A DNA stretch of 64,000 bases from Verrucomicrobia bacterium UBA1200 (GTDB lineage: Bacteria > Verrucomicrobiota > Kiritimatiellia > RFP12 > UBA1067). A program made the position numbers and the translations under genes. Shown one piece after another: positions 1,916-55,957 of this stretch. Every line of letters starts with the position of its first letter. The first letter of the stretch is position 1. The stretch is taken from assembly GCA_002309765.1 (NCBI GenBank), contig DBXY01000052.1, forward strand, positions 84,210-148,209, written 5' to 3'. The notes beneath the pieces are model-generated. The model ran no database searches, was not told the DNA's origin, and worked only from the letters and a program-made list of their open reading frames with translations.

Positions 1916-4900
1916 ATGCGCTCCGCCTATATCCTGTTTGTGCTGCCGTTCCTGATGACCAATTTTGCCCAAGCTAACCCCGTCCCCGACGAACAACTCC
2001 GGGCGGAATTCGCCAATCCCCCGGATTCGGCAAAGCCCCACGTCTGGTGGCACTGGATGAACGGCAATGTCTCCAAAGCCGGAATCACCGCCGACTTGGA
2101 GGCGATGAAAGCCGCAGGAATCGGCGGGGCGCAAATTTTCGACGTCTCCGACGGCATCCCCAAAGGGCCGGTGGATTTCCTCTCGCCGGAATGGTACGAC
2201 CTGGTGGATTTCGCGCTTTCTGAAGCCGAGCGGCTTGGCATCGAAATCTGCCTGGCCAACTGTTCCGGATGGAGTTCCACCGGCGGCCCGTGGGTAACCC
2301 CGGAAGAGTCGATGAAAAGCGTGGTTTACACCGAAACCCGCTGCAGCGGCGCATTCGACGGCACTCTGCCCCAACCCCCAAACCCGCACAACTTTTATGA
2401 GGACATCGCCGTGCTGGCGGTACCGCTGCCCGCCGCCGAATCGGTTTCTTTGCGGGACTATGGAATGACTGTTTCCGCGCCGAAACTCGACCAGCGGACG
2501 CAACTGGGATTGTTGACTGACGGGCAAACCAAAAACGGGATCGATTTTCAGCGAAAAGGTAAAGACAAAGTACCGTCCCCAATCGTTTTTTCGTTCGGCC
2601 AACCTTTCCCGTTGCGCGGCCTGACCCTTGGCATGACCACGCAAAACCGGTACGACCACTGTTTCGTAACCGTCGAATCGGCAGACGCGGATGGCTCCGC
2701 TTTTCGTCCGTTGGTCAACAACTATAAAGTGTTTCTGCGCTCATACGGCGATTCCCCCCGCGAGTCTTACATTCCCGTACCCGCCGTCAACGCCGGCAAA
2801 ATACGGGTAAACATTGAACTTCCGTCCGCCTCGCCATATAAAATCACGGAGCTTCGTCCTGAGGCCAAAGCGGGATTGCCGCAAGCGGCCGACAAGCTGT
2901 TTCAATTCCGTAGCCAAATCCTGTACCGCCCATATCAGTTCGAGCCAAGCTTTACCGTTCCCAAAGCCGGCATCGTAAACCTAACCTCCCGGATGAAAAA
3001 AGACGGTTCGTTACAGTGGGACGCGCCGCCCGGCGATTGGGCTTTACTCCGCATCGGCTATGCCTGTAACGGTGCCCACCCCCGCCCCGCCACACCAGCC
3101 GGAGCGGGCTTGGAATGCGACAAACTCGATCCCGAGGCGGTCACCCGATCCTTCAACGCCTATGTGGGCAAGGTGATTGAAAACGCCGGCAAACGGCGCG
3201 GAGCTACCCCCGCCCGACCGCCGGCGCTCAACAACACGCTCATCGACAGTTACGAGGTTGGTTGTCAAAACTGGACGCGGGGTTTCGACAAAATGTTCGA
3301 AAAACGCTGCGGCTACAGTTTCATCCCCTACCTCACGGTGTTTTCCGGGCGCATAATCGGCAGCGTGGAAGAGACCGAACGCGCGTTGGAGGATTTCCGC
3401 GCCACCATATCAGAACTCTTCTGCGAAAACTATTCTAAAAAATTCGCCGAACTCTGCCACCGCCACGGAATGAGCCTGTCGCTGGAAGGCTACGGCAACG
3501 CGCCTTGCGACGACTTGGCGTACAGCCGTTGGGCGGACATCCCGATGGGCGAGTTTTGGGCCTCCGCCGGCAACGGGTTGGGCAGCGGCGGCAACGGGCA
3601 TTTCGGAGCCTCCGTTTCCCACGTCTGGGGACAGAAATTTGTCGCGGCCGAGGCGTTTACCGCCGGGCCGGAAACCGGACGCTGGCTCAAAGACCCATTC
3701 TCGCTCAAAGCCCAAGGCGACCGCATCTACTGCACTGGAATCAACCGCATGGTTTACCATCGCTACGCCCACCAACCGTGGGTTGACGCAGCACACTACC
3801 CCGGTATGACCATGGGTCCGCACGGTACGCATTTCGAGCGCACCCTGACCTGGTGGAACCAATCTTCCGACTGGCTGGTTTACCAAGCCCGCTGCCAATA
3901 CCTGCTTCAATCCGGAACATTCGTTGCCGACGCGTTGTTCTTCGCCGGCGACCAAGCCCCCAACTACGGGCTGGACATCGACCGCTGGCACTCCTACGAC
4001 CGCGGAGCGCGTCCGGTCGGGCACCCGATCGGCTACGACTGGGACATTTGCGGAGCAGACGCCCTGCCGAAACTGCAAACTGCCAACGGGCGCATCGTCA
4101 GCCCCGGCAACACCTCATACCGAATGCTCGTTTTACCAGACCGCGAATGGATGTCGCTGAAAACGATCGGCGAATTGGAACGGCTGGCCGCCCAATCCGC
4201 GAAAATTGTCGGTAAAACCAAACCCCGGCGGATACTTGGATTATCCGGCGGCAGTGAGGCCGACCGCCAACTCCGCGACCGCGTGGAAAAACTTTGGCAA
4301 CGCAGCGTCGAACCGGTGACGGCCGGTGAGGCATTAGAGAAACTCGGGCTCGCCAAGGATTGCGAATGTCTCAACCCCGATCTCACCAACAAATTCTCCT
4401 ATATCCACCGCCGGGCAGACAGCGGGGCCGACATTTACTTCGTGGCGTTAGGCAACACCGCCCCGACCGATTTCGAGGTTGCCTTCCGGGTCGCCGGGAA
4501 AACTCCGGAACTTTGGGACGCCGAGACCGGTAAAACCAGAACTGCCGCCGTTTGGCGCGAGACCGGCAACCGTACCATTGTGCCGTTGCATTTTGAACCA
4601 TCCGGCTCTATCTTTGTGGTGTTCCATAACGCCGCCGCAAAAAAACATGTTACCGGATTGACCGTAACCGCCGCCAACCCGGACAAGGCCAACGCCAAGC
4701 GGCTCGAAATCGTCAAAGCCGTGTACGGGGTGCTTAACTCAGACAACACCATGGACATCACCGAAAAACTCCAAGCTGAAATTGCCAACGACCGGCTCGA
4801 AGTAAAGATATCCAACGAACTCGCCGGCCGCGACCCGGCCCGGCAGACCGTTAAAGAAGCCAAAATCGATTACCGACTCGACGGGAATGACCGCTCCGTA

Positions 4901-6473: not shown

Positions 6474-7104
6474 CCGCCAAATAATTTGGGATTGGAACGG
6501 CACGCTTCTCAACGACATCGACGCCGCTCTGGCGGCGGCCAACCAGATGCTAGCCAGCCGCGATCTGCCCACCCTGACCTTAGACCGATATCGCGAAATC
6601 TTCGGTTTCCCGGTGCGTGGATTTTATCGTCTGGCCGGTTTCCGGCTTGAAAACGAAGATTGGGACGCGATGGCCTGTGAATTTCACCGGATTTTTCTCT
6701 CGCAACCCACAATGCGGCTGTTTGACGACACCATCCCTACCCTTGAGCATTTTCAAAAGTCTGGGTACCGCCAAGTTATGCTCTCCGCATCGAAGCAGGA
6801 ACTGCTCACTGGCATGATTGGGCAATTCAAACTCACCCCCTATTTCGATGCGGTAAAGGGAATCGACACCCTTTACGGCACCTCGAAAATCGAACTGGGG
6901 AAAGAGTTGCTCCGCCAATCTCCGATACCGCCGGAACGGACGATAATGATTGGCGACACCTTGCATGATGCCGAAGTCGCCGCCGCACTGGGCACGAGTT
7001 GCATACTGGTCGCGCGAGGGCACCAATCCTTGAGACGGCTCCAAACCGCCGGAGTTCCGTTGACCGCAACTCTGTCGGAACTGCGCGTTCTGTTGGGAGA
7101 ATGA
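6466..7104 (+). CDS. HAD-superfamily hydrolase (phosphoglycolate-phosphatase-like, subfamily IA)
   Basis: GTG start overlaps the trmO stop. Motif I is IWDWNGTL (DxDGTL-like) and the C-terminal motif is IMIGDTLHD. Confidence 0.75.
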   Translation: MVDRQIIWDWNGTLLNDIDAALAAANQMLASRDLPTLTLDRYREIFGFPVRGFYRLAGFRLENEDWDAMACEFHRIFLSQPTMRLFDDTIPTLEHFQKSGYRQVMLSASKQELLTGMIGQFKLTPYFDAVKGIDTLYGTSKIELGKELLRQSPIPPERTIMIGDTLHDAEVAAALGTSCILVARGHQSLRRLQTAGVPLTATLSELRVLLGE

Positions 7105-7389
7105 AACATGACATTATAACGGGGCGCAAAATACTAAAGATGTGATGTTTTTAGTTGGTGGGGTTGGTTTTGAAATTGCCTCTTATGGCATATGTTACAC
7201 CGTTGGATTGATTTCTAACGGACAGCAAGGAGGGAAAAATCCATGGCAACAGGAAAAGCTCTCAATGGAAAGCCGTATGCGGGAAATCCGCACGTTGCGC
7301 CTTCGCAATGCTACGGCGGCACAAGTCGGTTTGTGGAGGGGGAAGTCGCATCGGCGGCGACACCGATGCGTGGGTCTCTACTCTACAAC

Positions 7390-9012
7390 ATGAGAAAACT
7401 GATAGCAGTCGCCGTTTCGCTATGCGCGGCGTACGCGTCTGCGGCGAATCCGATTCTGCCGCTATGGGAATACATACCAGACGGCGAGCCTTACATCTTC
7501 GACGATCCAGACAACCCGGGCAAGATGCGAGTGTATCTATACGGCTCGCACGACACTCTGCGCAATGCCTACTGTGGCTACGACTACACATTGTGGTCGG
7601 CACCGCTTGAGGATCCTAATCACTGGAGATGCGACGGGGTCATCTTCCAGTCGGTCAATGACGCGAACGGAGTGCCGCTTCTGAAGTCCGGCAAAGGGGA
7701 GCTCCTTTGGGATCCCGATGCGCAGGTTGTGACGGGGAAGGACGGCAAGAAGACGTATTATCTGTTCCCGTTCAACGTCCGGGCACGCGAACGGCTGGGA
7801 ATGGTGGCAAAGTCCAACCGCCCCGACGGCCCGTTCAAGGTCTGCAATTGGTCCAAGGACGATCCGAAGAAGGTGGATAGCTTCGGATTTCATCTCGCGA
7901 CATTTGTCGATGACGATGGAAGGGCATATGCCTACTGGGGAAGGGATGTGGGGTTCGGCAGCGACAGCGTGTCGGCGGCGGAGCTCGACACCTCCACCAT
8001 GTGCACACTCAAGCCCGGCGCGGAAATTCACAGGAATGTCGTCACCTCGTGGCGCCAGAAAGGGGAGGATCGCTACTTCGAGGGGCCTTCCATGCGCAAG
8101 ATAAAGGGGAAGTACGTGCTCATCTACGCTCGACACACGGCGGAAGGCGAATTTGGCCTTGAAGCAGAGTACTGCACACTCGCCTATGCATACTCCGACA
8201 GCCCGCTCGGACCCTTCACGTACGGCGGGACTTTGATCGACCTGCGTGGACGCGAGAAGGGACCTGACGGAAAGACGCGCATCACAGCGGCGCCGGGCGG
8301 AAATACGCACGGCAGCCTCTGCGAGATCAATGGGCAATGGTACGTGTTCTACCATCGGCAGACCGGCTTGAACGAATTCTCGCGCCAGGCAATGGTGGGC
8401 CGTGTGAATGTGACGATCGACGAGAGGCCGGGCGGGAAGGTAGCGATTTCCGAGGCGGAGATCGATTCCATGGGCTTCGAAACCGAGGGACTTGATCCGT
8501 TCGAGCTCCATGCAGCAGGAATTGCCAGCTATTACACGGGGCCAGTGCCCGCACGCCGCAGGCCGAGATATTCGTATTCCGGGCCCTATCCCGTGCCGTT
8601 TCGATGTGACGGATATGCGGCGAAGAACGCCTACGGTCCGGATGTAAACCGTTGTGCGCTCGTCAATTGCACGGAAGGTTCCGTTGCCGGATGGAAGTAC
8701 TTCAACTTCAATAATACTTTCGGGAAGAAGGGTTTGACGCTGTCCATCGAACTGGAGCCGAATAGATTGCAAGGCGTGATCGACGTGTGGGTGAAGCGTC
8801 CTTCGGCGAATGAGGGCGGCATGAAGGTTGGCTCGTTCACCTTGACTCCGGATTTGCCAGTCGGCATGCAGAGGGTGGAGATTCCCGTAGATGCACTTGC
8901 CGTCGTGAATGGCCGGGAGGCATTGTACTTGACTTTTTCATCGTCTGTGAAGAACCAGTCGATCTGCACATTGCACACCCTGCGGTTCCATCGGCGTGAA
9001 ACCCCAGAATGA
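7390..9012 (+). CDS. secreted GH43-like five-bladed beta-propeller glycoside hydrolase with a C-terminal carbohydrate-binding-like domain
   Basis: The real start is most likely the internal ATG at 7390 (MRKLIAVAVSLCAAYASA signal peptide); the track ORF starts upstream at 7243. The N-terminal PLWEYIPDGEPYIFDDPDNPGKMRVYLYGSHD is typical of the GH43 / clan GH-F fold. The C-terminal roughly 150 aa look like a beta-sandwich CBM. Confidence 0.65.
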   Translation: MRKLIAVAVSLCAAYASAANPILPLWEYIPDGEPYIFDDPDNPGKMRVYLYGSHDTLRNAYCGYDYTLWSAPLEDPNHWRCDGVIFQSVNDANGVPLLKSGKGELLWDPDAQVVTGKDGKKTYYLFPFNVRARERLGMVAKSNRPDGPFKVCNWSKDDPKKVDSFGFHLATFVDDDGRAYAYWGRDVGFGSDSVSAAELDTSTMCTLKPGAEIHRNVVTSWRQKGEDRYFEGPSMRKIKGKYVLIYARHTAEGEFGLEAEYCTLAYAYSDSPLGPFTYGGTLIDLRGREKGPDGKTRITAAPGGNTHGSLCEINGQWYVFYHRQTGLNEFSRQAMVGRVNVTIDERPGGKVAISEAEIDSMGFETEGLDPFELHAAGIASYYTGPVPARRRPRYSYSGPYPVPFRCDGYAAKNAYGPDVNRCALVNCTEGSVAGWKYFNFNNTFGKKGLTLSIELEPNRLQGVIDVWVKRPSANEGGMKVGSFTLTPDLPVGMQRVEIPVDALAVVNGREALYLTFSSSVKNQSICTLHTLRFHRRETPE

Positions 9013-9333
9013 CAAGGGCACGACTCGGCAAGTACGGCTTCATGATCCTTGGGAACGCCGCGCCTGTGCAATTTGCCATGGGCGCATCTGCGTTTTTCAC
9101 CCATGCCGACAGGAAGCGGAAAACAACCAATACAACTGGTAAAAACAACTTGAAGAAGAACGCGGGCTAACTCGCCTGCGTTATTCCCGTTTTTCAAGAG
9201 CGACAGGAATGCGCGAGCGAGTTAGTTCGCGCGCACAAGAAAAGTTGTTTAAATTAGTTGTTTTCAACCATCATGAACTTCGATGGTGAATTACGCAGAT
9301 GCGCCCGAAATCGCGCCAAGTGCCACAACGCGA

Positions 9334-9363
9334 TTGACATCCAATATGCGGTTATGATATAAT
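9334..9363 (+). promoter_or_regulatory. canonical sigma70-type promoter (TTGACA-N18-TATAAT) in the lower-GC remnant region
   Basis: TTGACA at about 9334-9339 and TATAAT at about 9358-9363, with an 18-nt spacer. It sits immediately upstream of the AAA-ATPase gene fragment at 9377. Confidence 0.3.
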
Positions 9364-9376
9364 ACCTACTATGTAA

Positions 9377-9517
9377 ACCTCCAAAAACGGAGTTTTTGAC
9401 GAGATCATTCGCGATGCACTGGATGCCAAAGGTGCAGTGCTGATTGAGGGCGCCAAGTGGCGCGGTAAAACCACGACCGTTGGCGGTCGATGTCATAATC
9501 GGCACTATCAGGGGTGA
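9377..9517 (+). pseudogene. N-terminal fragment of an AAA+ ATPase (DUF4143 / AAA_14-like); truncated remnant
   Basis: Translation: ...GVFDEIIRDALDAKGAVLIEGAKWRGKTTTVGGRCHNRHYQG*. It resembles the N-terminus and Walker-A region (LIEGxRxxGKTT) of DUF4143-family ATPases. An in-frame TAA sits at 9374 just upstream and the reading frame ends after about 46 codons. The region is lower in GC. Confidence 0.35.
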
Positions 9518-9544
9518 GGTCGACCTCAACTCCATCCCGGTACG

Positions 9545-9793
9545 TTGACGGTAGGCGAAGAGTTTTCCGGTCTTATGACGGTGAGTGGTACGACGAACAC
9601 GGTCTTCGCATCCGGCGCGACGATGACGTTTGCGGACGCAGTGGAAGGTTTGCCGAGCGGCATGAGATTAATGGCCGAAAGCAACGGCCTCTATCTTGAG
9701 CGCCCGGGGATGGTCATCATTGTGAAGCAGTTTTCACGATGGGGCCAGAGCGGGATTTGTGGTTACTGTCGTCAGCCCGAACGGGTTGTGTAA
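9545..9793 (+). pseudogene. possible decayed C-terminal fragment of a giant beta-helical repeat protein paralog
   Basis: The 82-aa ORF contains ...TVSGTTNTVFASGATMTF...MAESNGLYLERPGMVIIVK. This matches the conserved extreme C-termini of the giant proteins in this window (GLRLKYSGGTIIIMR*, ARIILGGTLFMVR*, PSGTFIMFR*), except that no stop follows the final K. Confidence 0.3.
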
Positions 9794-9814
9794 CTTGAAC
9801 ATGAAAGGAACAAA

Positions 9815-10663
9815 ATGAACGTTGGCGTATTTCTCTGTCTCGAGCCCTACACGTCGCTCGATAACAACCTCCGTCTCGCGCACGAGTACGGATTCACCCA
9901 CGCGGATATCACGGACACCCATTCGGGCGGCAGTATGTTCGCGAGCGCCGGGCTTTCTGCCTCTGTGAGTCTCGATGACAACCCGTTTGAGATCAGGCGC
10001 ACGTTCGAGCGCCACGGCATGAAGATCATGACGCTTAGCGCGCACGCGCTCCTGCTGGAGCCGTCATCTCCCGCCAACTACGCGACGGCCGAGATCATGA
10101 AGGCCATCAAGTTCGCGGCCGGCGCGGGCATCGAATACGTGATTACCACCGAGACGTTCGCAAAGAGCGAGTGGGCGAAGTCGCTCACCTACAAGGAGAA
10201 GGTGTTCATCGCCGCCGAGAAGCTGTACAACCCCTGCCGCATGGCGACGGACTACGGCATCAAGCTCTGCCTGGAGCAGCACGGTCCGCTCACGGACACG
10301 ATCGATGGCATCGGCGACATCATGGACCGCCTCGGCAACCCCGACTCACTCGGCGTAAACCTCGACACCGGCAACAGTTGGCTCGGCGGCACAAACCCGG
10401 TCGATCTCGCGAAGAAGTACCACGACAAGATCTACCACATCCACTGGAAGGACCTCGGTCCGGAGTGGCTTCCGAAGCGCGGCACCATATTCGGCTGCGG
10501 CTTCTCCACCATCGAGGTGGGGACCGGCTGCATCGACGTGGCGGGCGTGATTGAGGTTCTGAAGGACAACAAGAACATCAAGTACTCCACCCTCGAAGTC
10601 GGCGGCAGCGCGGAACTCCTCCGCGCCAGCGCGAAGTACATTGAGGACCGCTGGAACGCGTAA
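9815..10663 (+). CDS. sugar phosphate isomerase/epimerase (xylose-isomerase-like TIM barrel) protein
   Basis: 282 aa with typical TIM-barrel family features and metal-binding-type H/D/E positions (HIHWKD, LDTGN). No signal peptide. Confidence 0.7.
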   Translation: MNVGVFLCLEPYTSLDNNLRLAHEYGFTHADITDTHSGGSMFASAGLSASVSLDDNPFEIRRTFERHGMKIMTLSAHALLLEPSSPANYATAEIMKAIKFAAGAGIEYVITTETFAKSEWAKSLTYKEKVFIAAEKLYNPCRMATDYGIKLCLEQHGPLTDTIDGIGDIMDRLGNPDSLGVNLDTGNSWLGGTNPVDLAKKYHDKIYHIHWKDLGPEWLPKRGTIFGCGFSTIEVGTGCIDVAGVIEVLKDNKNIKYSTLEVGGSAELLRASAKYIEDRWNA

Positions 10664-10698
10664 AGTCTTCATTCAATCAACAGAAACGGAACGAGATA

Positions 10699-12165
10699 AT
10701 GAACGCAACACGCAGAAATTTTCTGAAGTCCGCCCTCGCGGCGGGCTCTTTCCCGACCATCATCCCCGCCAGTGTCCTTGGCGAGAACGCGCCGAGTAAC
10801 AAAGTGCAGATCGCGCTTATCGGGTGTGGGCGCATCGGCACCACGATGGATATCAGCGGGATTGCGCGGAACGAAGACATCGCCATGCTAACCACGATCT
10901 GCGATGTCGATGCGGCGCGGCTGGCGAACATGAAACCCGTCGCGGAGCGCTATTATCAGCACAAGATGGATCATCTCAAGCTGGAGATGGATTATCGCAA
11001 GGTGCTGGACGATCCGGGAATCGACGGCGTGATGATCTGCACGCAGGACCATTGGCACGCGCGGATGGTGGTGGAAGCGTGTCTAAAGGGAAAAGACGTT
11101 TACGTGCAGAAACCGATGGCCCTCTCCATCGAGGAGAGCGAGGCGATCGTGGAGGCGGTGCGCCGCACGAAACGGGTTTTCCACATCGGCACCCAGCAGC
11201 GGAGCGACCGGGGCGGATGCGGCGACGGTTTCCGGCGCGGGGTCGAGTATGTGATCAGCGGACGCATCGGTACCCTCAAGCGCATCGACGTGGGAATCAT
11301 CGACAACAGCCCCGCTACGGAGTGGAACGTGCCGCTGTACGAGGAGACGCCCGATCCGCGAGACTTTAATTTCGATCTCTGGCTCGGTCCCGCCCGCAAC
11401 GATGTGCGCTATTCGCAGCTGCGCACACACTGGCGTCCCGTCGGGCCGGACGGGAAAGTTGTCGCCAAGATCCCCGGACAGAATGTGGGCTGGCTGCAAA
11501 TCCAGGACTACTGCACCGGCAACATCTCCGGCTGGGGTTCCCATCACGTGGATATCGCGCAATGGGCAATGGGCGGAACCGGCCCGCTTTCCGTGAAATG
11601 CGAAAAGGCCACATTCCTTAAAGGACGACTGTTCAACGTGCATGACGACTGCCTTATCACCTACACCTACCCGAACGGCATCGAAATGCGGCTCGGCACG
11701 CCGCGCCTCACCGGGTTCCGTTGCGGAACCATGTTCTACGGCGAAAACGGCGACTGGATCTCCACCTGCCGCAACACCTCCGTGATTCCCGAAGGGAAAC
11801 GAGTCGATACCGCCTTCAAGCCTAAGGCGGATGTCTGGCGCAACTGCGAAGCGAACAAAAAAGAAATTCTGGAGGGAGAACCCGAAAAGCAGGTGGTGCG
11901 CAACAACGAGAAAAACCACCACCGTCCCTGGTTCCTCGGAATGCGTTCGCGCAAGGACACAAACATCACGGTTGAAGAGGCCAATACCTCGACAATCTCC
12001 TGCATTCTCGGTTACCACGCGATGAACAACATCGGTCACACCATCGGTTGGGATCCGGTGAAACGCGCCTTTACGAATCCGGAAGACCAGAAGCTCTACA
12101 GCTGCTTCGAGCGGCCGCAGTTCTCGGTCGCCCAAGCGCTGAAGGAGATCCGGCAACGCGGGTAA
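10699..12165 (+). CDS. TAT-exported Gfo/Idh/MocA-family NAD(P)-dependent oxidoreductase (ThuB / glycoside 3-dehydrogenase-like)
   Basis: Twin-arginine signal RRNFLKSALAAGSF. Rossmann motif IALIGCGRIG. Gfo/Idh/MocA core VYVQKP. Lies directly upstream of a ThuA-domain gene. Confidence 0.8.
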   Translation: MNATRRNFLKSALAAGSFPTIIPASVLGENAPSNKVQIALIGCGRIGTTMDISGIARNEDIAMLTTICDVDAARLANMKPVAERYYQHKMDHLKLEMDYRKVLDDPGIDGVMICTQDHWHARMVVEACLKGKDVYVQKPMALSIEESEAIVEAVRRTKRVFHIGTQQRSDRGGCGDGFRRGVEYVISGRIGTLKRIDVGIIDNSPATEWNVPLYEETPDPRDFNFDLWLGPARNDVRYSQLRTHWRPVGPDGKVVAKIPGQNVGWLQIQDYCTGNISGWGSHHVDIAQWAMGGTGPLSVKCEKATFLKGRLFNVHDDCLITYTYPNGIEMRLGTPRLTGFRCGTMFYGENGDWISTCRNTSVIPEGKRVDTAFKPKADVWRNCEANKKEILEGEPEKQVVRNNEKNHHRPWFLGMRSRKDTNITVEEANTSTISCILGYHAMNNIGHTIGWDPVKRAFTNPEDQKLYSCFERPQFSVAQALKEIRQRG

Positions 12166-12175
12166 AGGAGACACC

Positions 12176-13750
12176 ATGAGAACAGGTCTAATCGCCATCG
12201 TGGTCATGGCTGTTTCCGCACTGTTGGCGGCAGATCCCGCATCCCGGGATCTCGCGGGAGACGCGGAACGGTATTTCGCAAAGCACACGGTGCCGGGACT
12301 GAAGTCGTTTCAAGATCTTTTGAAACTGGCGGTTTCGCCAATCGACAATCCGGTAGCGGTGGACGCGACGGTTCTGCCCAAACACAAGAATAAGAAAGTC
12401 CGCTGCTGGGGACCGATGATGGTTCCCGTATTCCGTTCGTGGGGACTGAATGCGGAGGAGCTGGATCCCGACGCGCTCGCGAAGGGCGAATTACCGGATG
12501 TTATCTTCGTCACCCAAGCGCCATATTACACGCAGGGCGATGTCGAGATGATCTTCCGGACGGCGGCGGAAGGGGGCCATGTGGTCACCTTGAACGCGAC
12601 CGACCGTTGGAGCGAGGCAATCGCGAAACGGCTCGGCTTCGCTTACGGCGGTGTGCTGACAATCGGTGCGCCGGAACGAGGCGGCGTACTGTTCCCAAAC
12701 TGCCCGAAACTCGTTGACGGTTTTCCGGCAAAACCCCGGCTTGATGCCGAATTCCGCGAAATCGGGCAATGGTTGCACGGGATGTATCTAACAGGTGACC
12801 GTTGCCTGATGGGAGTGGCGGATATCAGTCAAGGACGCATCGCCTCGGCGGTCGCGCAGTATCCGGTCGGGCGCGGGGCGGTCACGCTTTTCGGGCCCCG
12901 CCTTTACGAGAAGCCGGATCTGCCGGTCTGCAAACGGATGCTGCTCAACCTGATTGATCTGCGCGCCCCGGCGCCGAAACCGTTGGGGCTGCCGTTCGTA
13001 TATCATCCCGATCCGCCCGAAGGCAAACCCTACTTTGAACTTCGTGTGCCGGGCACACGCGATGAATACCTCACGGAAGCGCGTCCGAAAGACCACATTT
13101 GGCATTTGGGTTGCTTCTTCTCGTGGAAATTCATCAACGGCATTAACTTCTGGGAGCCGAATGCGCACGGCTTGACGAAAGTGGTTTCCCATCGGGAGGA
13201 AAAGACGGCGCAAGGCGCGCGGTTCGATTCCGAATTGGACTATGCGCTTGACGGTCGGGTAATCTTGCGGGAACGCCGGACCGTGGATGCGGTTGTCCGT
13301 CCTGACGGCAATTACACCCTCGAATGGACCGGCCTTTTCGAAGCACTGGACGATCTCGCGTTCACCGCCAGCAAGCCCCAGTGGGACAAGGAAAAGGGAA
13401 CCTGTAACGGTAACGGATACGCCGGGCTTTCCGCGCGCCTGGCAAAAAACGCGGCGTTTTCTTACTCCTACACGAATGCGCTCGGCTCGGTTGACGCGCG
13501 ATGTTACGGCGACATCTCGCCGCGTATGGACGTTTACGCAAAGTCGAAACGTACCGGTGAGACTACTCGGCTTTCATTTATCGCCGACAAGCCGACGGCC
13601 AACTACACCCTGCATTGGCCAGAAAAGAACGACGGCGACGGGTTCCACTTCATCGCCTTTCCGGAGATGTTTAACGGAACGCTCCAGATGAAGAAAGGCG
13701 ACAAGCGGGAGTTCCATTACACGGTTGAGGTTATGAAGGTTTTGCGTTGA
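12176..13750 (+). CDS. secreted two-domain protein: uncharacterised N-terminal domain fused to a PmoA-like (DUF6807-like) C-terminal domain
   Basis: Signal peptide. Residues about 30-270 are paralogous to the N-terminal half of the next gene (TDRWSEAIAKRLGFAYGGVLT..ERGGVLFPNCPKL versus TDRWSEVIAKRLGHTYGGVLT..ERGGVLFTNCPKL). The C-terminal half (DHIWHLGCFFSWKFINGINFWEPNAHG...) is assigned to the PmoA-like family from memory only. Confidence 0.55.
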   Translation: MRTGLIAIVVMAVSALLAADPASRDLAGDAERYFAKHTVPGLKSFQDLLKLAVSPIDNPVAVDATVLPKHKNKKVRCWGPMMVPVFRSWGLNAEELDPDALAKGELPDVIFVTQAPYYTQGDVEMIFRTAAEGGHVVTLNATDRWSEAIAKRLGFAYGGVLTIGAPERGGVLFPNCPKLVDGFPAKPRLDAEFREIGQWLHGMYLTGDRCLMGVADISQGRIASAVAQYPVGRGAVTLFGPRLYEKPDLPVCKRMLLNLIDLRAPAPKPLGLPFVYHPDPPEGKPYFELRVPGTRDEYLTEARPKDHIWHLGCFFSWKFINGINFWEPNAHGLTKVVSHREEKTAQGARFDSELDYALDGRVILRERRTVDAVVRPDGNYTLEWTGLFEALDDLAFTASKPQWDKEKGTCNGNGYAGLSARLAKNAAFSYSYTNALGSVDARCYGDISPRMDVYAKSKRTGETTRLSFIADKPTANYTLHWPEKNDGDGFHFIAFPEMFNGTLQMKKGDKREFHYTVEVMKVLR

Positions 13751-13771
13751 AATTGAAGAAAGAGGGAAAAG

Positions 13772-15343
13772 ATGAATCACCATATTGTCCGGTTTGCAAT
13801 ATCAATGCTCGCGTTCTGTATGTTGTCCATGGCAAATGCCGACGATGAAGTGCCGCGCTCATTCGCAGATGAGGTGGAACGCTATCTCGCCACGCATCCG
13901 GTAGCGGGAATGGATAGTTATGCCAACTTCTGCCGTCTCGTGGCGCAACCGGCGGCGCAGGGCGCGGTTGACGCCGTCGTGCAACCCGACCACAAAGCCC
14001 GGAAGATCCGCTTCTGGGGCGCGTTGGAACACCTCGCGCTCTTCAAGACGTGGGGACTGGACGCGGAAGAATTCGATCCCGAAGCTGCCGCGCAAGGGGT
14101 TTATCCCGATGTCATCTTCTGCCATCTCGAACCGAACTATTCGCAAGGAGCCGTCGATCGGATTCTGGATGCTGTTCGTCACGGCACGCACTTCGTAACT
14201 TTGCAGAATACAGACCGTTGGAGCGAAGTGATTGCGAAGCGGCTCGGACACACCTACGGCGGCGTGTTGACCGCGCCCGCGCAGGAGCGCGGCGGCGTAC
14301 TCTTCACCAACTGCCCAAAACTTTTCGCCGGTTTCCCGGAGGGACGGCTGGACGCACCGCTTTTCGGTTTTGTCGGACAGTCACGTCACGGAATGTACCT
14401 TTCCGGCGACCGCTGTCTGCTGGGCGTGGCCGACACGCACAAATGCCGTATCGCGACGTCGATCGCGCAATACGCTTACGGAAAAGGCGCGGTCACTCTT
14501 GTCGGACCGTGCGTTAATCCCCATTCCAAGAAAGATATGAACGATCCCGCCTATAAGCGGCTTTTGCTGAATCTGGTGACATTGTTGCCCGCCGTAGTTA
14601 GCGAAAAGCCTTATGATGTGCTGCTCTATACGCGCTGGAAGTGGCATCGCGATCCCAAGACCGGGGTCGTCGGTTCAAAAGGCTCGTTCCATCACTTCTC
14701 CACCGAGACCGGCGCGGGAAATATGGCGGCATATTTCACGGCCAAGGGCCGCACGGTAAAAGTAACGGACGATCCCGAAATCTTCCGCACCGAAGGCTTT
14801 CGGAAATGCCCCTGCGTGGTCTTCGCCTGCGCCAACGAGGAACAGTTTGAGACCGAAACCCAGCGCGAAGCCTTCTATGCGTGGGCGAAAGCGGGCGGCG
14901 GAACGCTCGTCCTGCACTCCGCGAGCAATTGCGAAGTCGGTAACGCGGCATGGCGGGAATTTCTGGGCGGGACCTTCCTCTTCCACTACCCCAAGCATTT
15001 CCCCGTGCCGTTCGCCGAAGCAGACCGCACCCATCCCGCGATTGCGTGTCTGCCGAAGGATTACGTTTGGCCGTCCGAGGAGATTTATGTAAACGACATG
15101 GTACCCGGTGCCGTTACCCCGGTGCTCACATTCCGGGCTGACACCATGCCGGAGGAGATGCGGGATTGGCTCAAGGCACGCGGGCACACCGCAGTAAACG
15201 GACGCCACATTTTGGAATGGACAAAGGATTACGGCAAGGGCCGCGTTTATTATTCCGCGCTTGGACACGATGCTTCCGGTTTCGCCAGACCGGAATTTCT
15301 CGAACATCTCTACCAAGCCGCGCTTTGGACGACGGGACAGTAA
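13772..15343 (+). CDS. secreted two-domain protein: the same uncharacterised N-terminal domain fused to a ThuA (trehalose-utilisation, class-I glutamine-amidotransferase-like) domain
   Basis: Signal peptide MNHHIVRFAISMLAFCMLSMANA. The C-terminal half carries clear ThuA motifs: GGGTLVLHSASN, HP..LPKDYVW.SEEIY, EWTKDYGKGRVYYSALGHD, LYQAALWTTG. Confidence 0.7.
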   Translation: MNHHIVRFAISMLAFCMLSMANADDEVPRSFADEVERYLATHPVAGMDSYANFCRLVAQPAAQGAVDAVVQPDHKARKIRFWGALEHLALFKTWGLDAEEFDPEAAAQGVYPDVIFCHLEPNYSQGAVDRILDAVRHGTHFVTLQNTDRWSEVIAKRLGHTYGGVLTAPAQERGGVLFTNCPKLFAGFPEGRLDAPLFGFVGQSRHGMYLSGDRCLLGVADTHKCRIATSIAQYAYGKGAVTLVGPCVNPHSKKDMNDPAYKRLLLNLVTLLPAVVSEKPYDVLLYTRWKWHRDPKTGVVGSKGSFHHFSTETGAGNMAAYFTAKGRTVKVTDDPEIFRTEGFRKCPCVVFACANEEQFETETQREAFYAWAKAGGGTLVLHSASNCEVGNAAWREFLGGTFLFHYPKHFPVPFAEADRTHPAIACLPKDYVWPSEEIYVNDMVPGAVTPVLTFRADTMPEEMRDWLKARGHTAVNGRHILEWTKDYGKGRVYYSALGHDASGFARPEFLEHLYQAALWTTGQ

Positions 15344-15377
15344 TAAAACTCCGCCCAACGCCGCGCCGGCCCGCATG

Positions 15378-16583
15378 CTACAGTGACATTTCGAGGAGCG
15401 TCTCGAATCTGGCGGTGCGCGGGAAAAGATCAAACAGCTGGGCGCGGCGGAGGCGGTAGCCGCCTTCAAGAATTATCTTCAAATCGCGGGCCAAGGTGGC
15501 AGGGTCGCAGGATACGCAAAAGATTCTCGGCACGCCGCTGTCACGCAATTGTTGCGCCACGTTTGCCGCCATGCCGCCGCGTGGCGGGTCAACGATAACG
15601 GTGGTTTGGTCCCGATGCGCCAGAATCCCGTTTAAATCAAAATGTTCCGCGCCCAATTCCAGGCAACGGAAATCTGCCGGCGAATTCCACGCCTTGGAAT
15701 TTTTCTGAGCGGCGGCAACCGCCGCCCGCCCCGACTCCACACCCGCCAAACGAGTGCCGCCGTTAACGAGGCAGGACAGACCCAACGCCCCCACGCCGCA
15801 ATAAAGGTCAACGATCTCCCCTGCCCCGGAGAATGACGAAAACCACTCCGTCAAAGTCCGAATAAGCAACGAAGCGGCAACGGGGTTTACCTGAAAGAAA
15901 CCATCCGCCGGAACTTGGAGCGGTCCGAACGGGGTACGCTCGGTGAGCATTCGGGGTAAAGTGGAATGTCGCATGGCGGCACTGTACCATCCCGCGCCGT
16001 CGGATTCGGTGCAACGGAACACCACATCCGCGCCGGGACGAAAACGCCGCACGGTAGGCGAATGCAACAACCTGGACAACTCGATGTTTATTGCCGGGTC
16101 GGAGAGCGGGCAGCTGGAGGTCGGCAAAATCTGGTGAGAGCGTTCCCGCATATAACCGAGCGCGATCCGTCCGTCGCGATTACGGCCGCAATGCAAAGTG
16201 AGCTTATTGCGGTAATTAAGGTGGCGGGGCGACGCGACCGGCGGAAGCATGTCCAATCCGTCATATCCCGGCAACCTCGCCAACGCCTCTTGGAGCTGAG
16301 CCTGCTTGACGGCCAATTCCGCGGGATAGGCAAGATCGGCGTAAACGCAACCGGGAACCGGTGAACCGGAGGAAAGTCTGCAATCCGAACCGTCAATCCG
16401 GTCGCGGCTCGACGCGAGCAACTTCACAATACGCCCGCGCATAAAAGAACGCTTGCGCTGCACGATTTCAATCTGGACGGTTTCTCCGGGAAAGGCTCCG
16501 GGAACGAACACCACCGCGTTATCGAGACGCGCCAAGCCGTCACCACCGTAAACGCACTTCTCAATGGTAACCGTTTCCGTCAC
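15378..16583 (-). CDS. RumA/RlmD-family 23S rRNA (uracil-5)-methyltransferase (TRAM domain plus class I SAM methyltransferase)
   Basis: N-terminal TRAM-like beta-barrel (VYGGDGLARLDNAVVFVPGAFPGETV). SAM-binding motif DLYCGVGALGL and a C-terminal catalytic region. The GTG start overlaps the miaB stop (GTGA). Confidence 0.7.
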   Translation of the reverse strand: MTETVTIEKCVYGGDGLARLDNAVVFVPGAFPGETVQIEIVQRKRSFMRGRIVKLLASSRDRIDGSDCRLSSGSPVPGCVYADLAYPAELAVKQAQLQEALARLPGYDGLDMLPPVASPRHLNYRNKLTLHCGRNRDGRIALGYMRERSHQILPTSSCPLSDPAINIELSRLLHSPTVRRFRPGADVVFRCTESDGAGWYSAAMRHSTLPRMLTERTPFGPLQVPADGFFQVNPVAASLLIRTLTEWFSSFSGAGEIVDLYCGVGALGLSCLVNGGTRLAGVESGRAAVAAAQKNSKAWNSPADFRCLELGAEHFDLNGILAHRDQTTVIVDPPRGGMAANVAQQLRDSGVPRIFCVSCDPATLARDLKIILEGGYRLRRAQLFDLFPRTARFETLLEMSL

Positions 16584-17932
16584 TGCACCACCTCGCCGTA
16601 AAGCGTCTGTGGGGCGGCACGGGTTATGCGGACGGGGACGATAGCTCCGGCGCGAATGCCCGGCACCGGTTCAAACACCACGATTTTGTTACCATCCGAG
16701 CGACCGGCCCAACGTTTGGCGTTGCGCAAACTGCGCCCCTCCGCCAACACCTGCTGGACCGTACCGACCAGTAATTCGTTGTTTCGGACCCCGCGCAAAT
16801 CCTGATCGGACAGCAACACCTGATTGCGCCGCATCTTCTCCGTTTCCGAAACATCGTCCTCCATTGCGGCGGCCGGGGTACCCGGACGAGGCGAATACTT
16901 AAAAATAAAGGCGTTGTCAAACCCGGCGGCATCCATCAAACTGCGGGTTTGCTCGAAATCCTCAACCGTCTCGCCGGGGAAGCCGACAATCACATCGGTA
17001 GTGAGCGCAAAATCCGGCATCGCCGAACGTAACCTGCCAACCGCGTCAAGGTACTGCTCGCGGGTATAACCGCGGCGCATGGCCTTCAAAATGCGGTCGG
17101 AACCAGACTGCACCGGCAGATGCAGGTGGTGGCAGATTTGGGGGATGGTGGACATCGCCCGCACCAATTCGGCGGTACAGCCGGAGGGGTGGCCGGAGGT
17201 GAAACGCACGCGCAAAATGCCGGGCAAGGCGGCAACCGCCTCCAAAAGCCGCGCAAATGGCTCGCGGTAACCGCCGGGTGACGGCGGGTCAATCGCGTCA
17301 TCCCACACCGGGTTCATTCGGCCGTAGTTCATCACGCTCTGACCCAGCAGGGTAACCTCGCAAACGCCGTGTCGGGTTAGCGCGGCGATTTCAGCTACAA
17401 TCTCGCGCGCCGGTCTGCTGTATTCGCATCCACGCACATCGGGAACAATACAGTAGGCGCAACGGCGGTTGCAGCCCAACAAGATGGTGACAAAAGCCGA
17501 GAAACCTCCGTCCTCGGTATGCGCTTCCGGAACGTCCGGCACTTCGTTGGGATCGGAGAATTCGCTGATTCCGCGTTCGCCGGCTATTACCCGCTCCACC
17601 AGCCGCGGGATCGCCCCGGCCCGGCGGGTTCCGACCGAAAAATCCAGCGTCGGGACCCGTTTGAAGATTTCATTCCCCAACCGTTGCGCCATGCATCCCA
17701 TCAATCCCACCAAACGTCCGGGATGGTCGCGGCGCGAAGCGCAAAGCAAACCGAGTTTGCCCAGTGCCTTGTCCTCGGCCTTGGCCCGCACGCTGCAAGA
17801 ATTGACGATCACCAAATCGGCGTCCTGTTCGGATTCCGCCGCGACATACCCGGCGGCGGAAAGCACTGCGGACACCGCTTCGGAATCGCGGACGTTCATT
17901 TGGCAGCCGTAAGTGTGGAGAAAAAACTTCAT
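16580..17932 (-). CDS. miaB: tRNA-2-methylthio-N6-dimethylallyladenosine synthase MiaB (radical-SAM methylthiotransferase)
   Basis: N-terminal MTTase domain (FLHTYGCQMNVRDSE). Radical-SAM CxxxCxxC (GCNRRCAYCIVPDVRG). C-terminal TRAM domain. Confidence 0.9.
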   Translation of the reverse strand: MKFFLHTYGCQMNVRDSEAVSAVLSAAGYVAAESEQDADLVIVNSCSVRAKAEDKALGKLGLLCASRRDHPGRLVGLMGCMAQRLGNEIFKRVPTLDFSVGTRRAGAIPRLVERVIAGERGISEFSDPNEVPDVPEAHTEDGGFSAFVTILLGCNRRCAYCIVPDVRGCEYSRPAREIVAEIAALTRHGVCEVTLLGQSVMNYGRMNPVWDDAIDPPSPGGYREPFARLLEAVAALPGILRVRFTSGHPSGCTAELVRAMSTIPQICHHLHLPVQSGSDRILKAMRRGYTREQYLDAVGRLRSAMPDFALTTDVIVGFPGETVEDFEQTRSLMDAAGFDNAFIFKYSPRPGTPAAAMEDDVSETEKMRRNQVLLSDQDLRGVRNNELLVGTVQQVLAEGRSLRNAKRWAGRSDGNKIVVFEPVPGIRAGAIVPVRITRAAPQTLYGEVVQ

Positions 17933-35300: not shown

Positions 35301-38300
35301 TTAGCGGACCATAAACAGGGTGCCGCCTAGAATAATCCGGGCGGTCTTCTTATCCGCCGAGAGAACCACCGTGTATTTGTCCGGCAGATTGGTCTCGGCG
35401 AAGGTTCCGCTGATGGTACCCACCGAAGTGGTGGCAAAGGTGTAGGAGCCGCCCGCCAACTGCTCGCTGGTGAATTCCAGCTTGGCATTGGTGAGATCCA
35501 AAGAACCTTCACACTGCAGCAGGTCGCCCTGCGCCACCCGGAGCGTACCGGTGAGCACCGTGTCCAAAGCGAGATTCAACGTGCCGATGGCGTCATCGCC
35601 GCCGGGCGAAAGCACGCCCTTGACGTTCAAGGTGCCATGATAAACCCGGCCGCTACCCGACAGGCCAAACAGCTCGTGGGTGTCGCCGTTCAGGTCAAGC
35701 GTGGCACCGGCCGCGACATCGACGTTACGGACGGTCTCGACAAATTCGCTGGAGAGTTTCGGCAGCGCGTCGGTGCCGAGAATCGCGTTCTCGGTCAACT
35801 GGGCTTCCGACAACCCCGCGTTCCAAACGCGGAACTCGAAATAGGTCGCGCTGGCATCGGGATCGTTAAATTCGGAACGGCCCAACACGCAATGCACCTG
35901 ATTTAGGCTCGCGATGGTCCAGTTGTCATAGTGCCGGGTAGCAATGGCGATGGTCTCGCCGGTCCCAGCGTCCTGCTGGTAGAGGGTGACGTCTGAACCA
36001 CCCGCCCCGTCCGGAATTACCACGCAGCCAAAGTGGTAGATGACACCCTCGGTACACTCGTTAACCGGGATGTTGGCATAGTTGCTGACACAGAAGAAGC
36101 CCTTGCCTGTGACCGGGTCTGCACCGCCGCGCCAGCCCATTGCCAGATAATCGGAAGTGGAAGACCCGAAGGCGAACGCCTGACTCCAAGTGCGAGCGAT
36201 ATTCTGCCGTCCCCAGAACTCGATGGTCACCGGACCCTCGGTCGGCAGAATGTCCGTGCCGAGGTTAATCGACGAAGTACCCTTGTTGCCGCCGGAGGTT
36301 TGCGCCGCCTTGCCGCTGTCGAGGCGAACCTGACCCTGCGGGATCGCGTCGGCTCCGCCGATCACGTCGGCGTAGGAGTTGTTGAACGGCCAGCGGTGGG
36401 TCAAGTAGTTGTTCTGCAACAGTTCGGCGCTAGGCTCATCCGGGAAAACGTTGTCATCTTTAACCGTGTCTTCCTGGAGATAGGCAGGAAGCCGGTCCGG
36501 ACCGTAAAGCACGTTCTGGGTGAGTTCGGCATCGGTGAAAACGCGGTTCCAAACGCGGACTTCGTTGTAGTTCGCCATCGCGTCGGCATCACCCCACTCA
36601 TGGGTAGCCCCGAGGAAGCAGTAATTCAGCGCCCACTCTGAGGTAGTCCAATTACTAACGTTGATGGTTCTGGAACCCAACGTGGCGCCGGTGGCAATAT
36701 CCTTACGAACCGCTACCACCGAAGTATTGCCCGCCCCGTCCGGTTTGATGGTAACCGCATAGTAGTATTCAGCATTAAGGTCAATCGTACCGGTACCGGT
36801 TTCGTTGCCGCTCTTACCCAACACATTGACTGAAGTATTCTGAGTGTCACCACCGGTGCAGAAGGTCATCAAAAGACCATTGTCAGTTTTCGAGCTGAAG
36901 CAGAACATTTTTGACCAGTTTCTCCTCTCGCGCAACGTCGTCCACAACTCGATGGTTACCGGGGTGTTGTCCGAAGGGAGAATGTCACTGCCAAGATTGA
37001 CGTAGCCGCCAAAATGCGTACCCGCGTTCAGGCAAATCTGCTTGCCGTCCTCCGAGTAAGTGCAGTTGCCAACAATGAAGGCGTTTTTGTCGCCGACCAA
37101 ATCTTCGGCAGTGCCGTTGAAGCTCCAGCGGTGGACCAACCCGCCGCTGCCGGAGTGAATGGAGAGCGTACCCTCGGCAACGTTGAGATTTTCGACCGAC
37201 GGCACCGTACCCAAAGCGAGCAACCCGCTGCCGGTTTTGGTGATGGCACCGGTGGAACGACCGTTGGCCACCGGAATGCCGTAAGAATACACGCTGTTGG
37301 CACCGGTATCGATGGTCACGCCGCCGGGACCGATGGAGAGTCCGGCGGAATCATTGCCGTTGAAGAAATTCGCGAACACGCCCGAAGGATCGGGATTTTC
37401 TTCCGTCGCCGGGTTGTACGGAGCGAGAGTGGCGTTGTCAACGTAGAACACCAAGGTGTTGGTGGTGGCGCCGAAGTTGAAGCTGGAAGCCTCCACCCGA
37501 CCGCCGTCCGTAACGTTGAGAATAGCCCCCTGGGTCTCGACCGCATTCGCCAACCGGACAGGGGCGGCGGAGTAAACCCGACCATCGCCGCTAACATTCA
37601 AAGTACCGGTACCCAGCTCGCCGACGATGATGGCGCGACCGGCGTTAGGCTGGGTTAGAGTGCCGCCGGAGATGTCCCAAGTACCAACCGAACCGGCATA
37701 ACGGGCAATGCTAAACCACTCGGAGCAAGACGCAGCACCGCCGGTTTGGAAAACCTCGCCAATGCCGTAGCGGCCGATCTGGAAGTTATTGTCCACCTGC
37801 AAGACACCGTCGTTCAGGCGATAAATACCGTGGCCAACCAGATTGTCGTTATTGTTATATTCGCCGATGGCGGCGTCTTCACCGCGTTTGGTGGTGTCAT
37901 GGACGACGCCGCCGTTTTGGATCAATTCGCCAACGCCGAGGTTGCCGATAATCAGTTGCCCGACTTGAATGTCCGCGCCCGGCTCGACGTAAATTTTTGA
38001 AGTGGTGCCTCCTTCCCATGCGGCGATGAAACGGCCGCCTTCCATGTCAATCGAGCTTCCGCTCTCGAAATGCGACTCGGAACCGGTCCCTGTGAAACCG
38101 GAATAGAACCAACCGCCGGAGGTGGTCAGTTTTACGCCGTCGGTCACATAAAGCTTCGTGGCGTTGTAGATGCGGTAATCATGCGTGTAATAGGTGGCAA
38201 GGGAGTTGGTAAAGTATGCCACGCCGTCATAAATCTGCACCCACTGGTTCGGGGTGGAGATACCGCCGTCGAAACTGATCGTGGCGGGACCGGTCTTGAC

Positions 38301-40088: not shown

Positions 40089-40323
40089 ATTGACCACTCC
40101 TTTACCACATTTAAACCAACTGCATAATAAGTTAATCAATTCCACCTGTAAAGTAAAGTGAAAACCGAGCGCGGAAGTAAAAAAGTTATCCGTCTTGTTA
40201 CCTTGGATAACGCCAACCGCCTCAACATCCATTTTTCTTCCCCGCTTTTTCTTTTTTCGTTTGAATTTTACCGCCTTTTATGGCATAATAAATCGCGATT
40301 TTCAAACGAAAGTGAGGTTTTAA

Positions 40324-55806: not shown

Positions 55807-55957
55807 ATGCGCCACTCTACTTTCTGCGGCAATAGCTATCCCGGACAAACCGGAACACACCGCTTAACTGTAACGTATCATATATTAAAAGGGACTGTGT
55901 TGGCAAGCGAAAAAAAATTTTTTGCGGCAACCGTTCGGTTTTACCCCAAACGCGGGG

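Follow-up and report, generated by a model that had tools for sequence, protein, structure and literature searches.

A cluster centred on a predicted Tat-exported Gfo/Idh/MocA oxidoreductase in a ruminant-gut Kiritimatiellae bacterium and its candidate ThuA and DUF6807 partner modules

Do a Gfo/Idh/MocA oxidoreductase (GFO), a xylose-isomerase-like TIM barrel protein and two proteins with C-terminal DUF6807 and ThuA domains, encoded side by side in a ruminant-gut (rumen) Kiritimatiellae bacterium, form a module for sugar oxidation outside the cytoplasm? The question is raised by a stretch of 64,000 nucleotides (the window; all positions below refer to it) of Verrucomicrobia bacterium UBA1200, corresponding to positions 84,210 to 148,209 of the forward strand of contig DBXY01000052.1 (assembly GCA_002309765.1). 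The cluster is centred on the exported GFO dehydrogenase, and the reading that we favour, with a probability of about 0.5, is that it constitutes a ThuAB-like extracytoplasmic or periplasmic sugar or glycoside oxidation module, in which an N-terminal domain shared by the last two genes (the N-domain) acts as the dedicated partner or tether of the GFO.

A preliminary description of this DNA, made from the sequence alone, reported four co-oriented genes, and the open reading frame (ORF) list bears this out: ORFs of 282, 488, 524 and 523 aa lie on the plus strand at 9815-10663, 10699-12165, 12176-13750 and 13772-15343. The genes are separated by 35, 10 and 21 nt; the first gap had been given as 36 nt, which the ORF coordinates correct to 35. 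All four domain families named in that description (AP_endonuc_2, GFO_IDH_MocA, DUF6807 and ThuA) matched above the curated Pfam cut-offs. No plus-strand terminator-like site was found between the four genes, and tblastn of the modules across the window found no further copies outside the cluster. Signal peptides were called by direct reading together with a Kyte-Doolittle hydropathy script (10-residue maximum).

The second gene (10699-12165, plus strand) encodes a Gfo/Idh/MocA NAD(P) oxidoreductase of 488 aa (PF01408, 1.3e-16), the predicted catalytic core of the cluster. The protein starts with MNATRRNFLKSALAAGSFPTIIPASVLG and shows an exact S/T-R-R-x-F-L-K motif; its twin-arginine (Tat) signal, residues 1-28 (nt 10699-10782), is formed by TRRNFLK and a hydrophobic region. 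The Pfam TAT_signal model scored below threshold (14.4 vs 22.7 bits), and RRxF[LI]K is N-terminal in nearly every orthologue with an intact 5' end among the fetched loci, in agreement with the Tat export that had been proposed. The GxGxxG motif, K138, H282 and D285 are invariant. The GFO belongs to a discrete clade with 61-91% internal identity, whose next relatives reach at most 45% and which is about as small as the N-domain family; partner GFOs across the loci described below are 64-97% identical to that of the window. The nearest outgroup GFOs (40-45% identity, about 478 aa; L097, L098; P0171, P0173, P0180) are paired with or fused to PF16490, Oxidoreduct_C, and therefore different clades of this GFO family appear each to have their own small partner domain.

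The best match of the GFO among NCBIfam models was the glycoside 3-dehydrogenase model BT_2158_fam (NF058561), with 109.7 bits against a cut-off of 750, covering residues 4-245 and profile positions 1-227 of 487. Matches to PDB entries 8tdf and 8tdh and to DgpA (2.1e-15) are confined to the Rossmann half. Other PDB matches included scyllo-inositol dehydrogenases, glucose-fructose oxidoreductase (GFOR; 31-32 bits over the Rossmann region) and the GH109 structures 2ixa (5e-4) and 6t2b (4e-4). Assignment to the BT_2158, IolG, IolE, levoglucosan dehydrogenase or BT_2159 equivalogs was rejected, all scores being far below the cut-offs.

The third and fourth genes share one architecture. Gene 3 (12176-13750, plus strand, 524 aa) encodes a Sec-type signal (about nt 12176-12232), the N-domain (about 12236-12979) and a DUF6807 domain (about 13001-13747), while gene 4 (13772-15343, plus strand, 523 aa) encodes a Sec-type signal (about nt 13772-13840), the N-domain (about 13841-14596) and a canonical ThuA domain (about 14627-15340). 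Both leaders are hydrophobic and of Sec type: MRTGLIAIVVMAVSALLA followed by AD in gene 3, and MNHHIVRFAISMLAFCMLSMANA followed by DD in gene 4, with 10-residue Kyte-Doolittle maxima of 3.05 and 2.40, respectively. A PmoA-like C-terminus had been anticipated for gene 3, and residues 294-520 do match DUF6807 (PF14100; 2.7e-26, 93.2 bits vs a gathering threshold of 27), over profile positions 36-256 of 270 with the first 35 or so missing. Residues 303-520 of gene 4 match ThuA (PF06283; 6.1e-32, 112 bits vs 33.4, profile positions 8-209 of 209), preceded by the N-domain, as the claim of an extra N-terminal domain in the ThuA gene held. "PmoA" is a legacy name and a misnomer for DUF6807, which has a galactose-mutarotase-like fold with invariant D-H-x-W-H, E99, Y148 and R154. 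No sequence relatives of DUF6807 were found in the PDB, and the literature on PF14100 yielded incidental mentions only, such as a Verrucomicrobia beta-galactosidase cosmid (PMC5342196).

Over their first 260 or so residues, the proteins of genes 3 and 4 share 50% identity (BLASTP 1e-75), and the shared domain is about 250 aa long. It was described previously as both shared and novel; the identity upholds the first part, and the second does not hold at the level of fold. The N-domain gave no Pfam or NCBIfam match, and neither sequence nor profile comparison matched it to Pfam ThuA (PF06283). Its AF2 model, built on a 30-sequence alignment (per-residue confidence, pLDDT, 92.2; predicted TM-score, pTM, 0.91), superposes on GATase1/ThuA-like proteins, which have the class-I glutamine amidotransferase (GATase)-like fold, and Foldseek retrieved the middle (oligomerisation) domains of GH42 and GH164 glycoside hydrolases (GH) together with 1t0b, at TM scores of about 0.4-0.55. 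As modelled, the N-domain is a very diverged member of the non-catalytic ThuA/GH42-middle branch of this fold, so that gene 4 would effectively encode a tandem of a ThuA-like and a ThuA domain. The family is small: 34 clusters among 5.8 billion proteins, every one from ruminant-gut Kiritimatiellae, and nearly all stand-alone and of about 255-260 aa. A profile search of 1.84 billion representatives gave 13 proteins at E<1e-10 and about 30 weak matches (1e-14 to 1e-3); the weak relatives with any Pfam family are GH2 and/or PA14 proteins, matched in their C-terminal domains.

A GTDB scan gave 28 loci, all in Kiritimatiellae-type metagenome-assembled genomes (MAGs) recovered from the gut of goat, sheep, yak, cattle, buffalo and roe deer. 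Their arrangements, determined by tblastn of the window modules against all loci together with gene calls, were divided into types A to G. Type A shows an N-domain gene followed by the GFO (L001-L006, L015, L018, L020, L022). In type B these are followed by ThuA (L007, L017, L019, L021) or, in L024, by a ThuA:DUF6807 fusion. Type C shows the GFO followed by an N-domain:ThuA fusion (L011-L014) and type D the GFO followed by an N-domain:DUF6807 fusion (L008, L027, L028, L032, L034-L036). Type E contains N-domain:DUF6807 with no such GFO within 8 kb (L026, L029, L030, L033), its neighbours being GH123, CBM6 and HZS_alpha proteins. Type F, the GFO followed by N-domain:DUF6807 and N-domain:ThuA, is that of the window, of L009 and probably of L010, where the GFO region is cut off. 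Type G, found in L023, shows the order GFO, N-domain:DUF6807, TIM, N-domain:ThuA, GFO. The linkage of four families expected in the preliminary description thus stood for GFO, N-domain, ThuA and DUF6807 across the 28 loci; the conserved core is the GFO plus the N-domain, and the TIM gene proved strain-variable. Large HZS_alpha (hydrazine synthase alpha middle) proteins, one of them with a CBM6 domain, are encoded at L026:4365-7130, beside N-domain:DUF6807, and at L047:1935-4298, beside the TIM gene, an odd neighbour to find recurring.

Wherever downstream sequence is present, a stand-alone N-domain gene is immediately followed by a GFO of 64-81% identity (about 15 loci, several of them redundant; L016 ends at the N-domain), with gaps of 14-50 nt. 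In 14 loci other than the window, fused N-domain genes lie directly 3' of a GFO of the same clade. Judged by this linkage, the N-domain is genetically tied to one GFO clade. Furthermore, all three pairwise fusions of N-domain, ThuA and DUF6807 were found, in different genomes; the set is completed by L024:4548-6173, which encodes a single 541-aa protein with a Sec signal, ThuA and DUF6807, downstream of the N-domain and GFO genes. Every pairwise fusion of the accessory modules therefore occurs, which is Rosetta-stone evidence for their joint function.

The signals also differ systematically between the forms of the N-domain. The stand-alone forms (n=11) show no hydrophobic leader, whereas nearly all of the approximately 20 fused forms have one; the exceptions (L012, L026, L032 and partly L023b) are over-extended ORF calls, the leader not being confirmed in L012 and L032. 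Stand-alone ThuA and ThuA:DUF6807 proteins have Sec leaders. In addition, stand-alone N-domains contain another five to six cysteines that are conserved, among them those of a CxxC-type tail at the C-terminus; the Sec-exported forms lack these residues, which may form a metal or cluster site. These proteins (P0002-P0027, for example that encoded at L003:8001-8771) have 7-14 cysteines each, with subgroup-specific conserved cysteines at alignment positions 6, 50, 87, 94 and 183 and tails such as LPPVGGKACKSC.

The first gene of the cluster (9815-10663, plus strand) encodes the xylose-isomerase-like TIM barrel of 282 aa (Pfam AP_endonuc_2, 1.5e-21). The protein has no signal peptide: it begins at strand 1 of the barrel (MNVGVFLCLEPY...), no earlier in-frame start exists, and it is probably cytoplasmic. 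The compartment split proposed previously, with a signal-less TIM and three exported proteins, agrees with the signals as read and recurs in Pontiella and Luteolibacter. The TIM protein scored 44.4 bits with the NCBIfam IolE model TIGR04379 (cut-off 290), below the equivalog level, and its PDB matches were weak (3p6l, AsbF, and 8tcd/8tcs at E of about 1e-3); it is probably a keto-sugar isomerase/dehydratase-type enzyme.

Comparison of the window with its closest relative, L009 (RGIG3692, a goat rumen MAG, about 95% identical in DNA), by blastn delimits a 3.6-kb segment (7108-10731) in place of which L009 shows 74 bp (4818-4891). The segment contains a GH43 gene (7243-9012), sequence that is non-coding or a remnant, the TIM gene and the start of the GFO gene (about 11 codons), and its breakpoint falls inside the region coding for the GFO signal peptide. 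The N-terminus of the window GFO, MNATRRNFLKSALAAG, matches those of type A and B loci and not that of L009, MKKRIGRRGFLKG; a leader unlike that of L009 and like those of other locus types points to recombination within the signal-peptide region, and suggests recombination between paralogous loci. The TIM gene adjoins modules of the system in L010, L019, L021, L023, L035, L036, L041-L043, L050 and L051, and downstream of more distant TIM homologues (70-74% identity) there are often distant ThuA and GFO genes. The notion of the TIM gene as an integral operon member was ruled out on account of its strain-variable insertion and its unrelated neighbours elsewhere. The TIM protein is 94-99% identical in amino acids across loci whose GFOs are only 64-80% identical, which reflects either unusually strong constraint or recent spread, in variable position. 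Where the TIM protein shows this identity (L010, L019, L021, L023, L036, L040-L051), the neighbouring GFO, DUF6807 and ThuA genes are only 44-80% identical. We read the TIM protein as a single highly constrained cytoplasmic enzyme, functionally associated with the system without being an obligate operon member; one such enzyme may serve several periplasmic modules per genome.

Related linkages extend beyond these loci. Pontiella agarivorans shows the order TIM, GFO, DUF6807 next to a divergent AraC-type gene, the GFO having a Tat-like leader, TRQNFLK, and Luteolibacter algae shows TIM followed by DUF6807, also next to a divergent AraC-type gene; in both, the TIM protein is signal-less and DUF6807 has a Sec signal. 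L039 shows the order DUF6807, UroD, GFO, TIM, with a twin-arginine signal on the GFO, a Sec signal on DUF6807 and a Tat-like leader on the TIM protein as well. Linkage of TIM, ThuA and GFO was also found in other metagenomes. In L. algae, the product of the gene after TIM and DUF6807 (L038:6951-7535), 194 aa long, contains a CxxCH haem-binding motif, a hint that aerobic relatives may have a link to cytochrome c.

The mechanism that we propose is as follows. The GFO would leave the cytoplasm in folded form, its NAD(P) tightly bound, as does the GFOR of Zymomonas and as proposed for BT2158. The N-domain, itself non-catalytic, would serve the GFO as a partner or docking subunit, in the place that ThuA has in ThuA-ThuB; in the window genome it would tether canonical ThuA and the mutarotase-like DUF6807, the latter with a sugar-binding or acid-base role, to the periplasmic GFO. 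The separate, signal-less N-domain, a form absent from the window, would most likely bind the GFO in the cytoplasm and be carried out with it as a Tat hitchhiker. The GFO probably oxidises a hydroxyl of a glycoside or sugar, and C3 oxidation of a glycoside is most likely because the best, albeit partial, GFO matches are the glycoside 3-dehydrogenase model and DgpA; 3-keto-glycoside chemistry is what we infer from them. The keto-sugar would then be processed in part by periplasmic DUF6807 and ThuA and, after uptake, by the signal-less TIM enzyme. The surrounding GH genes (GH106, GH43, GH2, GH20 and GH127) point to plant or host glycans as the substrate. A redox-neutral cycle would suit an anaerobe; no electron acceptor is encoded nearby.

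Several results weigh against such a module. The likeness of the GFO to glycoside 3-dehydrogenases spans the Rossmann half only, at scores far below the equivalog cut-off, and IolG (TIGR04380, 80 bits, cut-off 355) and IolE are also matched weakly. No DUF1080 match was obtained in the four proteins or in any other scanned ORF of the window, and the cluster encodes no transporter, regulator or electron acceptor. In at least four loci no GFO of this clade lies within 8 kb of the N-domain:DUF6807 gene, so that adjacency is not universal. The TIM gene was not found by tblastn within 16.7 kb of the L009 locus, and occurs in unrelated contexts (S1 protein, GpsA, GH43/AXE) in L040 and L045-L047. As for the partner domain, its ThuA-like label is one of fold, on which GH42-type domains score about equally, and the C-terminal domains of GH2/PA14 glycosidases are its only sequence relatives outside the family. 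An hhalign comparison of the N-domain with the local ThuA domains was not significant (probability 0.7%); the non-significant alignment pairs a YGKGAVT motif with YGKGRVY of ThuA and shows TLQNTD, without cysteine, at the expected GATase nucleophile elbow. A value of 99.7% obtained with hhalign was rejected as an artefact of P0001 extending into a real ThuA domain, the trimmed alignment not being significant. Finally, we know of no biochemical role assigned to either ThuA or DUF6807.

Among the closest known systems is the ThuA-ThuB pair of the thuEFGKAB operon of Sinorhizobium and Agrobacterium (Ampomah 2013, as cited in PMC6683767 and PMC8121099). As there, a ThuA-family gene and a Gfo/Idh/MocA gene share one co-oriented cluster, the two being directly adjacent in L011-L014 and L007, and the position of the ThuA-like N-domain directly upstream of the GFO in many relatives mirrors the thuA-thuB order. 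The cluster differs in having no thuEFGK-type ABC transporter (scans of ORFs within about 5 kb upstream and 8 kb downstream, and of other large window ORFs, gave neither an ABC transporter nor a solute-binding protein), in the predicted export of the GFO by Tat and of the ThuA protein by Sec, in the presence of two ThuA-type modules (N-domain and canonical ThuA) plus DUF6807, and in its host, an anaerobic gut bacterium.

The 3-keto-glycoside pathway of Bacteroides, BT2156-BT2159, whose mechanism is reportedly the subject of work by Nasseri in 2024, shares with the cluster a Tat-exported GFO, for which the BT_2158 model is the best match, a glycan-degrader context and possibly a xylose-isomerase-like TIM barrel partner. 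BT2158 is described as a Tat-exported GFO for which a bound cofactor is proposed (Liu 2021, PMC8121099); redox-neutral use of a bound cofactor is plausible in the anaerobe studied here. However, the C-terminal half of the window GFO is unmatched (110 vs 750 bits), the cluster has ThuA, DUF6807 and the N-domain instead of a DUF1080 hydrolase/lyase and a second GFO, and its TIM protein is signal-less, only weakly similar to 8tcd/8tcs (E of about 1e-3), encoded on a strain-variable insertion and not always linked. The cluster thus resembles ThuAB and the BT2156-2159 route and is a member of neither, because the thuEFGK transporter and DUF1080 are missing and the BT_2158 equivalog match failed. 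The GFOR of Zymomonas mobilis, a periplasmic, Tat-exported Gfo-family enzyme with tightly bound NADP, offers a model for cofactor handling; it matches over the Rossmann region only and works on free sugars without partner proteins. DgpA/DgpBC (CarABC) differ in that the DgpA match is Rossmann-only and that one TIM gene stands here in place of a DgpB/C-like pair. The IolG/IolE pair of inositol catabolism differs in the failed equivalog matches.

The individual domains have relatives of fold as well. The N-domain lacks significant sequence or profile similarity to ThuA, in which it differs from the class-I GATase-like non-catalytic domains (1t0b, 4e5v, 4jqs; the middle trimerisation domain of GH42/GH164). 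DUF6807 is only 6-14% identical to galactose mutarotase/aldose 1-epimerase, with no relation at sequence level, and this fold is also a non-catalytic domain in many GHs and polysaccharide lyases (PLs). The stand-alone N-domains, a form not present in the window, may be comparable to Tat hitchhiker complexes: they are signal-less and encoded beside a GFO with a Tat signal, and their fused homologues are Sec-exported.

An alternative that we regard as unlikely is that one sugar pathway uses the four proteins as independent enzymes that are only co-regulated, with a catalytic or carbohydrate-binding N-domain and neither complex nor hitchhiking. Conserved polar residues are indeed numerous in the N-domain (H, K, R, D, E, Q, Y), but the family is narrow (at least 47% identity), so that this conservation carries little information, and the missing cysteine at the nucleophile elbow argues against a GATase-type activity as far as the non-significant alignment goes. 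That its sole sequence relatives are accessory domains of GH2 glycosidases, and that N-domain:DUF6807 genes occur with no GFO nearby, would also suit independent enzymes; against this stand the strict succession of stand-alone N-domain and GFO genes at short gaps, and the pairing of a signal-less N-domain with a Tat substrate while the fused forms are Sec-exported, which is difficult to account for if the two act in different compartments. Equally doubtful, in our view, is a bolder version of the favoured module, according to which N-domain, ThuA and DUF6807 are subunits or tethered domains of a modular periplasmic "oxidative glycosidase" assembled on the Tat-exported GFO: in most Kiritimatiellae the Cys-rich, signal-less N-domain, which may bind a metal or cluster, would hitchhike, and DUF6807 would carry out the elimination, hydration or anomerisation that DUF1080 and TIM proteins perform in Bacteroides. 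If true, it would provide the first sugar-active Tat hitchhiker and assign functions to ThuA and DUF6807, which are large families in Planctomycetes, Verrucomicrobia and Chlamydiae (PVC) bacteria.

Two further explanations concern the chemistry of the GFO. It could form with the TIM protein a cyclitol or monosaccharide module, IolG/IolE-like or GFOR-like as an aldose oxidoreductase, with no glycoside 3-oxidation; we think this quite unlikely. The second-best NCBIfam matches are indeed IolG (GFO) and IolE (TIM), scyllo-inositol dehydrogenases and GFOR are among the PDB matches of the GFO, and an AsbF-type dehydratase is among the best TIM matches. The IolG and IolE scores nevertheless lie far under their cut-offs, the best GFO match is the glycoside 3-dehydrogenase model, the GFO is Tat-exported while IolG is a cytoplasmic enzyme, the TIM gene is only loosely linked, and many GHs are encoded in the neighbourhood. 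It is very unlikely that the GFO is a self-contained NAD-dependent glycosidase with a GH109/GH4 mechanism, a single active site carrying out oxidation, elimination, hydration and reduction, and that ThuA, DUF6807 and the N-domain are accessory binding or oligomerisation domains. GH109 enzymes have about 480 aa and a Tat signal, as the GFO does; the N-domain resembles GH oligomerisation domains and the DUF6807 fold is common as a non-catalytic GH/PL domain. The GH109 structure matches are, however, the weakest in the list and limited to the Rossmann domain, the recurrent TIM linkage in PVC genomes suggests separate elimination/hydration enzymes, and the invariant His, Asp and Glu of DUF6807 suggest chemistry beyond scaffolding.

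Under the favoured reading of a ThuAB-like module, the setting is the recently recognised oxidative (non-Koshland) route for cleaving glycosides. No new principle follows, and the N-domain partner family is limited to ruminant-gut Kiritimatiellae; what is new is this family itself, which pairs exclusively with a single GFO clade, its three-way fusions involving ThuA and DUF6807, the dichotomy of Sec and absent signals, and the mutarotase-like fold of DUF6807. Glycan degraders, among them Planctomycetes, Verrucomicrobia and Kiritimatiellae, have ThuA (PF06283) and DUF6807 (PF14100) in abundance. The fusions, the dedicated partner domain and the signal dichotomy tie both to a Tat-exported GFO and make their roles experimentally tractable, replacing the vague annotation "trehalose utilisation" with testable complex formation, Tat co-export and keto-sugar chemistry.

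The 3' side of the cluster is closed by a convergent methyltransferase gene (15378-16583, minus strand). On the 5' side, a candidate promoter of sigma-70-type consensus (9334-9363, plus strand; TTGACA-18-TATAAT with TG, 12/12 matches) lies 450 nt 5' of the TIM gene; with four promoter-like sites found against 2.5 expected in shuffles, barely above background, it is weak evidence. Just 3' of this site, in the 800-nt gap before the TIM gene, a short frame at 9392-9480 (VFDEIIRDALDAKGAVLIEGAKWRGKTTT) resembles, on direct reading, part of an AAA ATPase pseudogene with the Walker-A motif. An Rfam scan of 6500-17000 gave only a sub-threshold Collinsella-1 match within a coding region, taken as chance. 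Elsewhere in the window lie genes for another AP_endonuc_2 TIM barrel (201 bits; 41579-42430, plus strand) and for another, shorter Gfo/Idh/MocA protein (54607-55860, minus strand), which are linked neither to the cluster nor to each other. Two ORFs of near-equal length, about 1640 aa, lie on the minus strand at 35301-40232 and 48852-53792; the former contains PATR repeats and a Laminin_G_3 domain and looks like an autotransporter-like surface protein.

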